From Escherichia coli (GTDB lineage Bacteria > Pseudomonadota > Gammaproteobacteria > Enterobacterales > Enterobacteriaceae), in the NCBI RefSeq assembly GCF_044324785.1, contig NZ_CP172127.1: DNA of 64,000 bases; one strand, given 5' to 3'. The position numbers were made by a program, and so were the translations under genes. This document shows, one piece after another, positions 9,365 to 23,430 of this stretch; the stretch's first letter is position 1, and each line of letters starts with the position of its first letter. The notes beneath the pieces were generated by a model. The model did no database searches. It was given only the letters and a program-made list of their open reading frames with translations, and was not told the origin of the DNA.

Positions 9365-9365
9365 G

Positions 9366-9968
9366 TTATACCGCCTCGGTCAGTTCCGGCTGAGGCGTTT
9401 CCACTCCCTCCGCATGAATCAACACCAAACCCGGATGATGCCACAAACTGGCTGGCGTGACGGTTTTACGCTCCCACGGAATAGAACCTAAGAACCAGAA
9501 TTTCCAGAAAGTGAGTTTTGCATTCGGATTGCTATTTAACAGTTCTCCAAACGTCTCTATTTCACCCACCGGAATACATAGCGCCTCTTTATAAATATCA
9601 AAAACAAATTTTGAACAGAACTGGCGCGAAGATTCGTATTTAAAACCGGTGTGGTAAAGTTTGCGTAACCGGGAGGGAACCTGTTCAACAATTCGTTGTT
9701 TTTGTTGTTGTGTTAGCCCGGCGTCTAATCGTTTTATAGCATAGCGTTGATTAGCAGAACGTTTAATAAAACGAGACAGCGTGGTGATAGTTGAAAGGGG
9801 AACCCGGCTTTCTGCAACCAGGAAGTCTTCACCGTTATGACCGATAATGATCCCGACGTGATTACTCCAGCAATTTGATGCAGCTGATATTTGACCAAAT
9901 AAGGCAGCACCTATACATGTAAAGACGATATCACCAATTTCATATTCAGCAGGGTAATTAATATTCAT
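9366..9968 (-). CDS. yebB: Uncharacterised protein YebB (probable permuted papain-like amidase family)
   Basis: ORF 9366..10067 trimmed to internal ATG (200 aa); AT-rich gene on opposite strand between ruvC and ruvA. Confidence 0.75.
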
Positions 9969-10038
9969 GTTGTCATTCCATTGAAATAGATATGAATATA
10001 CGTAATAGCATAAATAATTTATTTTTTCAGGAGGCGCA

Positions 10039-10104
10039 ATGTATATTTTAATTACGCATTTCTTCACTGAATATGTAATATTTAAATATTTGCTTCCAAT
10101 ATAA
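10039..10104 (+). CDS. Candidate 21-aa small hydrophobic protein ([21 protein letters not shown])
   Basis: ATG preceded by AGGAGG at 7-nt spacing; below ORF-track size cutoff; may correspond to the annotated small protein yobI, but this is from memory and not verified. Confidence 0.4.
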
Positions 10105-10175
10105 CCTGTAGAAAAAATTCTACTGCGTCATTTTTCAGAACATCGGGACGCCTCGCAAGTTTTCTTCATCCTTCG

Positions 10176-10191
10176 CTGGATATCTATCCAG
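10176..10191 (+). promoter_or_regulatory. LexA (SOS) box upstream of ruvAB
   Basis: CTGGATATCTATCCAG palindrome matching the CTG-N10-CAG LexA consensus, about 50 bp upstream of ruvA. Confidence 0.75.
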
Positions 10192-10242
10192 CATTTTTTT
10201 ATCATACAGCATTATCTTTGATTCATTACGCAGGAGCGTCAT

Positions 10243-10854
10243 GTGATAGGCAGACTCAGAGGCATCATCATTGAAAAACAACCCCCGCTGGTGTTAATTG
10301 AAGTGGGCGGCGTAGGCTATGAAGTGCATATGCCGATGACCTGTTTTTATGAACTCCCTGAAGCGGGTCAGGAAGCGATCGTTTTCACCCACTTTGTGGT
10401 GCGTGAAGACGCGCAATTGCTGTACGGTTTTAACAATAAACAAGAGCGCACGTTGTTCAAAGAGTTGATCAAAACCAACGGCGTCGGCCCGAAGTTGGCG
10501 CTGGCGATCCTCTCTGGAATGTCAGCGCAGCAGTTCGTTAATGCCGTTGAGCGTGAAGAAGTGGGGGCGCTGGTGAAACTGCCGGGTATTGGCAAAAAAA
10601 CCGCCGAACGCTTGATTGTTGAAATGAAAGACCGATTTAAAGGTTTGCATGGCGATCTCTTTACGCCAGCCGCCGACCTGGTACTCACATCACCTGCCAG
10701 CCCGGCGACCGACGATGCTGAACAGGAAGCGGTTGCCGCGCTGGTGGCGCTGGGCTATAAACCACAAGAAGCAAGCCGCATGGTGAGCAAAATCGCTCGC
10801 CCTGACGCCAGCAGTGAAACATTAATTCGCGAAGCCCTACGCGCCGCGTTATGA
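10243..10854 (+). CDS. ruvA: Holliday junction branch migration complex subunit RuvA
   Basis: 203-aa ORF with GTG start; recognised RuvA. Confidence 0.95.
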
Positions 10855-21618: not shown

Positions 21619-23430
21619 ATGAACCCACAATTGTTACGCGTAACAAATCGAATCATTGAACGTTCGCGCGAGACTCGCTCTGCTTATCTCGCCCGGATAG
21701 AACAAGCGAAAACTTCGACCGTTCATCGTTCGCAGTTGGCATGCGGTAACCTGGCACACGGTTTCGCTGCCTGCCAGCCAGAAGACAAAGCCTCTTTGAA
21801 AAGCATGTTGCGTAACAATATCGCCATCATCACCTCCTATAACGACATGCTCTCCGCTCACCAGCCTTATGAACACTATCCAGAAATCATTCGTAAAGCC
21901 CTGCATGAAGCAAATGCGGTTGGTCAGGTTGCGGGCGGTGTTCCGGCGATGTGTGATGGTGTCACCCAGGGGCAGGATGGAATGGAATTGTCGCTGTTAA
22001 GCCGCGAAGTGATTGCGATGTCTGCGGCGGTGGGGCTGTCCCATAACATGTTTGATGGTGCGCTGTTCCTCGGTGTGTGCGACAAGATTGTCCCGGGTCT
22101 GACGATGGCAGCCCTGTCGTTTGGGCATTTGCCTGCGGTGTTTGTGCCGTCTGGACCGATGGCAAGCGGTTTGCCAAATAAAGAAAAAGTGCGTATTCGC
22201 CAGCTTTATGCCGAAGGTAAAGTGGACCGCATGGCATTACTGGAGTCAGAGGCCGCGTCTTATCATGCGCCGGGAACATGTACTTTCTACGGTACTGCCA
22301 ACACCAACCAGATGGTGGTGGAGTTTATGGGGATGCAGTTGCCAGGCTCTTCTTTTGTTCATCCGGACTCTCCGCTGCGCGATGCTTTGACCGCTGCAGC
22401 TGCGCGCCAGGTTACGCGCATGACCGGTAATGGTAATGAATGGATGCCGATCGGTAAGATGATCGATGAGAAAGTGGTGGTGAACGGTATCGTTGCACTG
22501 CTGGCGACCGGTGGTTCCACTAACCACACAATGCACCTGGTGGCGATGGCACGCGCGGCCGGTATTCAGATTAACTGGGATGACTTCTCTGACCTTTCTG
22601 ATGTTGTACCGCTGATGGCACGTCTCTACCCGAACGGTCCGGCCGATATTAACCACTTCCAGGCGGCAGGTGGCGTACCGGTTCTGGTGCGTGAACTGCT
22701 CAAAGCAGGCCTGCTGCATGAAGATGTCAATACGGTGGCAGGCTTTGGTCTGTCTCGTTATACCCTTGAACCATGGCTGAATAATGGTGAACTGGACTGG
22801 CGGGAAGGGGCGGAAAAATCACTCGACAGCAATGTGATCGCTTCCTTCGAACAACCTTTCTCTCATCATGGTGGGACAAAAGTGTTAAGCGGTAACCTGG
22901 GCCGTGCGGTTATGAAAACCTCTGCCGTGCCGGTTGAGAACCAGGTGATTGAAGCGCCTGCGGTTGTTTTTGAAAGCCAGCATGACGTTATGCCGGCCTT
23001 TGAAGCGGGTTTGCTGGACCGCGATTGTGTCGTTGTTGTCCGTCATCAGGGGCCAAAAGCGAACGGAATGCCAGAATTACATAAACTCATGCCGCCACTT
23101 GGTGTATTATTGGACCGGTGTTTCAAAATTGCGTTAGTTACTGATGGACGACTCTCCGGCGCTTCAGGTAAAGTGCCGTCAGCTATCCACGTAACACCAG
23201 AAGCCTACGATGGCGGGCTGCTGGCAAAAGTGCGCGACGGGGACATCATTCGTGTGAATGGACAGACAGGCGAACTGACGCTGCTGGTAGACGAAGCGGA
23301 ACTGGCTGCTCGCGAACCACACATTCCTGACCTGAGCGCGTCACGCGTGGGAACAGGACGTGAATTATTCAGCGCCTTGCGTGAAAAACTGTCCGGTGCC
23401 GAACAGGGCGCAACCTGTATCACTTTTTAA
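21619..23430 (+). CDS. edd: Phosphogluconate dehydratase (Entner-Doudoroff)
   Basis: 603-aa ORF; ILVD/EDD family. Confidence 0.97.

Follow-up and report, generated by a model that had tools for sequence, protein, structure and literature searches.

The 21-codon frame between yebB and ruvA of Escherichia coli is the known mini-gene yobI, which looks young and has a polymorphic start codon

Introduction

Is the 21-codon open reading frame (ORF) that lies between the divergent genes yebB and ruvA of Escherichia coli a gene, and does the evidence point to a conserved function of its product? The frame runs on the + strand from the ATG at 10039 to the TAA at 10102–10104 of a 64,000-nucleotide stretch of E. 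coli DNA (contig NZ_CP172127.1), which is called the window here and whose numbering is used throughout. The original prediction, which was made from the sequence letters, had placed a hydrophobic small protein with a strong Shine-Dalgarno (SD) sequence at this position and had suggested that it might be yobI of strain K-12.

yobI is an already known, previously described monocistronic mini-gene. Its identification and location are credited to Hemm et al. 2008 by Goodall et al. 2018, in whose TraDIS data insertions in yobI were very sparse or absent and the gene was listed as “potentially essential” pending validation (PMC5821084). A sigma-70 holoenzyme binding site was reported in the divergent yobI/yebB spacer of K-12 (Shimada et al. 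2014, PMC3946193), and the same study gives predicted promoters for yobI (TTGTCA-15-TACAAA), yebB (CTGAAA-17-TATTAC) and ruvAB (TGGATA-17-TATCAT). yobI is also included among the “previously known sORFs” in Table S8 of Schumacher et al. 2023, with no acid response (PMC10746267). For yobI, that table leaves the adjusted p-values of Ribo-seq, RNA-seq and translation efficiency empty, which we read as an indication of low counts. A partner protein, a phenotype or a membrane localisation of YobI was not found in the accessible literature. The detection of tagged YobI and the “stress response” label attached to the protein are taken here from annotation.

Since yobI has been part of the K-12 annotation since 2008–2009 and has a dedicated NCBIfam model, the frame is no discovery. 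The one aspect with some, if mild, novelty is the apparent youth of yobI, which may be of de novo origin and has a polymorphic start codon.

Results

Identity and translation start of the frame

The 21-codon frame was assigned to yobI (b4677), an identification that the matches described below make practically certain. The coding sequence and its translation signal are as follows.

10039–10104, + strand: yobI coding sequence (RefSeq and K-12 annotation at the syntenic site; NCBIfam NF038179)
10029–10034, + strand: Shine-Dalgarno sequence AGGAGG, with a 4-nt spacer (CGCA) before the yobI ATG

The window peptide scored 56.2 bits against the NCBIfam equivalog model NF038179, for which the cutoff is 33 (E = 2.4e-15), and the alignment extended from end to end, with peptide residues 1–21 corresponding to profile positions 1–21 of 21. 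In K-12 MG1655, yobI (b4677, YP_002791244.1) occupies the syntenic slot between ruvA and yebB. The window and K-12 spacers are colinear in alignment, and the two YobI proteins are identical at 19 of 21 residues, the window having L4 and F15 where K-12 has F4 and L15. A 401-nt query around yobI had a match in 5425 of the 5426 complete E. coli genomes, and in 5392 the match extended over 80% or more of the query; among the matches listed, all 29 genomes that matched the full query carry the RefSeq label “yobI: stress response small protein YobI”. Both the window and the K-12 alleles are named YobI in a collection of 15 billion proteins, and the exact alleles bear this name at NCBI and UniProt; the exact window protein was located on 396 contigs of the large collection. 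The gene is present in one copy per genome and, at 21 aa from its own SD-led ORF, its product belongs to the small proteins of no more than 50 aa. The suggestion that a small protein, possibly yobI, is annotated here in K-12 was therefore right, as judged by synteny, residue identity, the family model and the RefSeq labels. The coordinates likewise bear out the predicted location: the frame is flanked by divergent yebB on one side and ruvA on the other, and the ruvAB LexA box lies downstream of it.

The hexamer AGGAGG was found four times on the two strands of the 64-kb window, where base composition would predict 31.6 occurrences. At three of these sites a start codon follows. This rarity indicates that the yobI SD site is not a chance feature. 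The distance between SD and start usually has its optimum at ~5–8 nt. The original prediction had described AGGAGG at optimal spacing; the motif is present as described, and the 4-nt spacing is functional but slightly under the optimum, so that the wording was a mild overstatement. As a separate observation, one of the four AGGAGG sites, in the segment 21723–21843 on the − strand, precedes an ATG and GTG that open a 34–36-aa ORF lying antisense inside edd (21619–23430, + strand), and this antisense ORF is probably a product of chance.

Genomic context

The neighbours of yobI in the window are listed below.

9366–9968, − strand: yebB, encoding a 200-aa YebB family permuted papain-like enzyme; it is divergent from yobI and makes up the rest of the low-GC islet
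10243–10854, + strand: ruvA, the downstream neighbour, with its own promoter

The GC fraction over 9450–10350 is 0.32–0.43, compared with ~0.52–0.57 in the flanks. At 80 ruvA-anchored loci, each from a different species of Enterobacteriaceae, ruvC and ruvA are usually ~83 nt apart, and yebB is present in Escherichia, Pseudocitrobacter, some Kluyvera, Superficieibacter, one Enterobacter, one Klebsiella and one Citrobacter. The patchy occurrence of yebB, the low GC and the short usual gap together indicate that yebB plus the yobI spacer constitute a low-GC islet in an insertion-prone gap. The yebB–yobI islet is horizontally acquired. A longer form of yebB, consisting of a 233-aa ORF that starts at GTG 10067 and overlaps yobI, was considered and rejected; all annotations take the 200-aa form from ATG 9968.

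The ruvC–ruvA gap is an insertion hotspot (window 9365–10242; loci L003–L082), with 0.5–2.4 kb of varied cargo at other loci. Kosakonia carries an insert of ~1.92 kb without yebB in this gap, and E. albertii has a different, 228-aa hydrophobic ORF (L021, 1719–2405) within a 1090-nt spacer. In E. coli R32_14_1F (L095, NZ_CP074749.1) most of the yebB–yobI region is missing, and two hypothetical-protein genes are located upstream of ruvA instead; the ruvA of this genome is 91% identical to that of the window. It is one of 34 complete genomes labelled “E. coli” in which less than 80% of the region was matched. In the closest genome, E. coli N3 (L001, 99.8%), ruvA is annotated as a frameshifted pseudogene; the window ruvA frame is intact.

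Taxonomic range of the frame

In the genomes and metagenomes searched, only E. coli/Shigella has the SD, ATG and frame intact together. At 30 loci, YobI-like 21-codon windows were sought in the 700 nt that precede ruvA, and the spacers of yebB-carrying loci were examined by ORF listing or sensitive blastn. Outside E. coli/Shigella, a YobI-like frame was matched only in two non-coli Escherichia representatives, both with a damaged start or SD. Escherichia sp. MOD1-EC7003, whose ruvA, ruvB and ruvC genes show ~94% nucleotide identity, has an uninterrupted frame up to the same stop, with ATA in place of ATG and AGGAGA in place of AGGAGG; ATA with AGGAGA in an otherwise open frame is the state in the closest sister species. 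In SCPM-O-B-8794, which is labelled E. coli and represents a separate GTDB species (~90–91% identity), there is a 7-nt deletion at the SD/start and the frame ends early. Between species, the yobI segment diverges faster than its neighbours, with identities of 90.9% versus ~94% at locus L003 and 77.6% versus ~90% at locus L011.

Sensitive blastn detected no DNA homology to the yobI spacer in nine other yebB-carrying loci, no YobI-like ORF was seen in the short spacers listed from other yebB-carrying genera, and a translated search of 50,697 phages returned no YobI match. Five matches recorded as “plasmid” proved to be large E. coli sequences between 0.42 and 4.9 Mb in size, three of them chromosome-sized. 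Metagenomes were searched with a degenerate back-translated pattern of the YobI peptide core, which yielded 99 stretches, 80 of them obtained as loci and 79 complete. A YobI-type ORF was present in all 79 complete loci, and E. coli-type DNA continued past the stop in 77 of them; the exact LexA box followed within 250 nt in 75 and was found with a single mismatch in two more. The species labels on exact YobI alleles agree with confinement to E. coli/Shigella. Two metagenomic contigs depart from the common arrangement: in one (L134) an apparent insertion-sequence end directly follows the yobI stop, and in the other (L127) the yobI C-terminus is disrupted and unrelated AT-rich DNA follows.

The original prediction had itself stated that a reading frame not conserved in related genera would refute it, and the frame is indeed absent outside E. 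coli/Shigella. This absence weakens any claim of conserved function and leaves the annotation unaffected.

Variation within E. coli

Diversity was evaluated in 15 genome sequences spread over the identity range, to which 79 metagenomic sequences were added (94 in total). In the 15 genome sequences, the yobI ORF has 9 segregating sites in 66 nt (π = 0.046); π is 0.025 and 0.059 in the flanking spacers, 0.037 at the 5′ end of yebB, and 0.000 over a 125-nt segment that takes in the LexA box together with the promoter, 5′ UTR and first codons of ruvA. Seven nonsynonymous and four synonymous distinct changes were counted in these genomes, giving pN/pS = 0.40 (binomial test versus neutral, p = 0.13). 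When the metagenomic sequences were added and only codons unconstrained by the search pattern were used, four nonsynonymous and two synonymous changes gave pN/pS = 0.47 (p = 0.32). yobI appears to be under weak constraint at most, as a pN/pS of ~0.4–0.5 is indistinguishable from neutral here.

The frame is open and reaches the same stop in all 15 genome sequences and is open in 93 of the 94 sequences overall; because only ~5% of single-base changes create a stop, this openness carries little statistical weight. The common amino-acid polymorphisms are T10A (38/94), F15L (26/94), Y2C (22/94) and I21K (11/94), and residues H7 and E11 are invariant in the 15 genome sequences, where no search-pattern constraint applies. 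Six further YobI alleles each occur on at least 1000 contigs.

The SD of yobI is polymorphic in E. coli, with the forms AGGAGG, AGGAGT, AGGGGG and AGGGGT. Haplotypes were counted by megablast of 30-mers on the 5426 complete genomes; since megablast requires a 28-nt exact word, such 30-mers serve as near-exact haplotype probes. The counts are given below.

AGGAGG with ATG-TAT: 2617 genomes
AGGAGT with ATG: 1970 genomes
AGGGGG with ATG-TGT: 131 genomes, including the type strain ATCC 11775
AGGAGG with ATG-TGT: 115 genomes
Start-loss haplotype, ATG to ATA: 159 of 5426 genomes (2.9%)
The window's own haplotype from SD to codon 5: 2 of 5426 genomes

An ATA start was also observed in 7 of the 79 metagenomic contigs, one of which has a disrupted C-terminus as well. 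In E. coli S1-CHI-01-A (L084), the ATA allele creates an ATG two bases downstream in another frame, which encodes the 9-aa peptide MYFYYAFLR behind the same SD; RefSeq still annotates yobI in this genome, with an ATA start.

The chief alternative to a gene with a selected product is that yobI is a functionless, translated proto-gene, in which AT-rich DNA of the islet happened to acquire a strong SD and an ATG on the stem of E. coli. We regard this as unlikely, and regard with equal doubt its corollaries that the peptide is made at a low level in no selected role and that the annotation persists from a one-time detection of the tagged product. A proto-gene would account for the missing or damaged frame in the sister Escherichia species and other genera, for ORF diversity equal to that of the flanking non-coding DNA with a pN/pS not distinguishable from 1, for the high frequency of the radical changes Y2C, T10A and I21K, for start loss in 2.9–9% of strains, for the rapid divergence of the yobI segment at L003 and L011, and for the low Ribo-seq counts. 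It accounts less readily for the retention of the ATG in ~97% of genomes, for the SD-like purine run (AGGAG or AGGGG) in every haplotype seen, for pN/pS point estimates below 1, for the invariance of H7 and E11, and for the NCBI name, which would imply that stress-dependent accumulation has been reported. As far as the substitution counts go, near-neutral evolution fits “no selected function” equally well, and weak purifying selection and neutrality are inseparable in these data.

Predicted promoters and transcript end

Predicted transcription signals around yobI are listed below.

9970–9996, + strand: predicted sigma-70 promoter of yobI, −35 TTGTCA at 9970–9975, 15-nt spacer, −10 TATGAA at 9991–9996 (hexamers of PMC3946193 mapped to the window)
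10002–10030, − strand: predicted yebB promoter, −35 CTGAAA from 10030 to 10025, −10 TATTAC from 10007 to 10002 (hexamers of PMC3946193 mapped to the window)
10108–10123, + strand: small hairpin GUAGAA-AAAA-UUCUAC, a predicted fold directly 3′ of the yobI stop
10176–10191, + strand: ruvAB LexA box CTGGATATCTATCCAG, whose palindrome forms a 7-bp hairpin (10175–10192) followed by T7 (10194–10200)
10177–10205, + strand: ruvA promoter TGGATA-17-TATCAT (our own scan; PMC3946193)

The yobI and yebB promoters were assigned as hexamers in silico and do not come from mapping of transcription starts, and the predicted −10 of yobI reads TATGAA in the window versus TACAAA in K-12. A consensus promoter scan of the window region did not recover the published yobI and yebB promoters and called only the ruvAB promoter. 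On these assignments, the two divergent promoters would stand back to back and be interleaved within ~60 bp; the predicted −35 of yebB reaches into the start of the yobI SD, and the predicted yebB promoter overlaps the yobI 5′ UTR.

Fold prediction 3′ of yobI yielded simple hairpins only. The hairpin at 10108–10123 varies among strains (variable sites 10114 and 10120), and the LexA box region, which begins 71 nt after the end of yobI, is invariant in the 15 E. coli sequences. Of 78 assessable Enterobacteriaceae loci, 74 retain the LexA-box palindrome and T-run in front of ruvA, whatever adjoins upstream, with a conserved stem and a variable loop. On the predicted fold, the yobI transcript probably ends at the LexA-box hairpin with T7, which would act as a terminator. 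The same hairpin may terminate any upstream gene, which is yobI here and ruvC in most genera.

This layout also raises the alternative of a role in cis, in which transcription or translation of yobI matters and the peptide does not, either by competition with the yebB promoter or by feeding transcription into the ruvAB promoter. The overlap of the yebB −35 with the yobI SD and the tight divergent arrangement would allow the former, and the short distance to the LexA box, with a hairpin and T-run that could modulate read-through, the latter. However, most of the 74 loci that keep the LexA box, promoter and T-run are without yobI or yebB; ruvAB control therefore needs no yobI, and a cis role is very unlikely. 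Other yebB-carrying genera, moreover, have no yobI-like ORF, and the promoters on which competition would depend are hexamer assignments. An upstream ORF or attenuator acting on ruvAB was rejected for the same conservation of the control region and because the ruvAB promoter is located downstream of the ORF.

Properties of the peptide

YobI has a GRAVY of 1.26, an Eisenberg mean hydrophobicity of 0.58, a negligible helical hydrophobic moment (0.08) and a net charge of ~0. The original prediction of one probable transmembrane segment holds with respect to hydrophobicity and is borderline with respect to the segment: over 19 residues the Kyte-Doolittle mean reaches 1.36 at best, short of the classical threshold of 1.6, and the 21 residues include internal H7, E11 and K16. 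A helix of this length is predicted to be just long enough to span the bilayer. T6, H7, T10 and E11 share one helical face.

Discussion

Taken together, the data make it reasonably probable that yobI is an SD-driven, young, lineage-restricted and dispensable gene for a short membrane-associated peptide. Weak constraint at most and natural start-loss alleles argue that yobI is an accessory gene that the cell can dispense with, as opposed to part of the core functions, and a hydrophobic membrane peptide, young and dispensable, is its most likely product. The essentiality hinted at by TraDIS is hard to reconcile with the start-loss clade, with the 34 genomes in which less than 80% of the region is present and with the absence from sister species. 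A simpler explanation of the TraDIS gap would be that a 66-bp AT-rich target happens to be a cold spot for insertion. Caution is therefore warranted with regard to both the “stress response” label and the essentiality hint, as they fit badly with start-loss alleles, sister-species absence and near-neutral evolution.

With respect to origin, we tentatively suggest that the SD and ATG of yobI arose on the E. coli/Shigella stem from AT-rich spacer DNA already present in the yebB islet and are still drifting on and off, a proposal to which we give somewhat less than even weight. If such a stem origin is true and the start is still polymorphic, yobI would be among the youngest validated E. coli genes and would offer a natural case, open to experiment, in which a bacterial micro-protein is being born de novo or is beginning to be lost. 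yobI could also serve as a compact model for the birth and loss of very short genes in enterobacterial islets.

A mechanism can be proposed for a membrane-associated YobI, by analogy with other small proteins and at about even odds. Transcription of yobI would start at a weak sigma-70 promoter of its own within the yebB–yobI divergent spacer, and the transcript would probably end at the LexA-box hairpin and T-run, before the ruvAB promoter. The AGGAGG sequence would then drive translation of the 21-residue hydrophobic peptide, which would be released inside the ribosomal exit tunnel and reach the inner membrane post-translationally, as YohP does. YobI is expected to be too short to emerge from the ribosome before release, so any targeting would have to be post-translational. 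In the membrane, YobI may adopt a single short helix whose polar stripe (T6, H7, T10, E11) could contact another membrane protein.

The nearest counterpart of the window gene is K-12 yobI, which it resembles in its locus between yebB and ruvA, its length, its SD and its stop codon. Among other known peptides, the type I toxins Ibs (about 19 aa) and ShoB (26 aa) resemble YobI in size and hydrophobicity; the Ibs/Sib family is multi-copy, whereas yobI is single-copy and has no antisense RNA family match. The idea that YobI is itself a membrane-damaging peptide of this type (cf. Ibs, ShoB, TisB), silenced by an antisense RNA, would suit a very short hydrophobic product encoded in an AT-rich islet beside an SOS-regulated operon, but its probability is close to nil: Rfam, including the known antitoxin sRNAs, matched nothing on either strand of 9800–10400 at E ≤ 1, a search that covers described RNA families only, the LexA box is located downstream of the ORF and belongs to ruvAB, and yobI has few or no TraDIS insertions (PMC5821084), whereas disruption of a toxin gene should be tolerated. 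A type I toxin was rejected on the missing antisense partner of a described family and the poor fit with the TraDIS pattern.

YobI of Bacillus subtilis and the Tmn family of P-loop NTPases have only the name in common with E. coli YobI, the B. subtilis protein belonging to an unrelated large transmembrane NTPase family in phage defence (PMC13001434). Compared with these systems, a dispensable membrane peptide of the kind favoured here has its closest parallels in two small E. coli proteins of the inner membrane with a single helix, YohP (27 aa), for which post-translational, SRP-dependent membrane insertion has been shown (PMC7549839), and YkgR (33 aa). Both are, like YobI, hydrophobic proteins of less than 50 aa with their own SD and promoter, the promoter of yobI being a predicted one; YobI is shorter than either and less uniformly hydrophobic, with H7, E11 and K16 in its interior.
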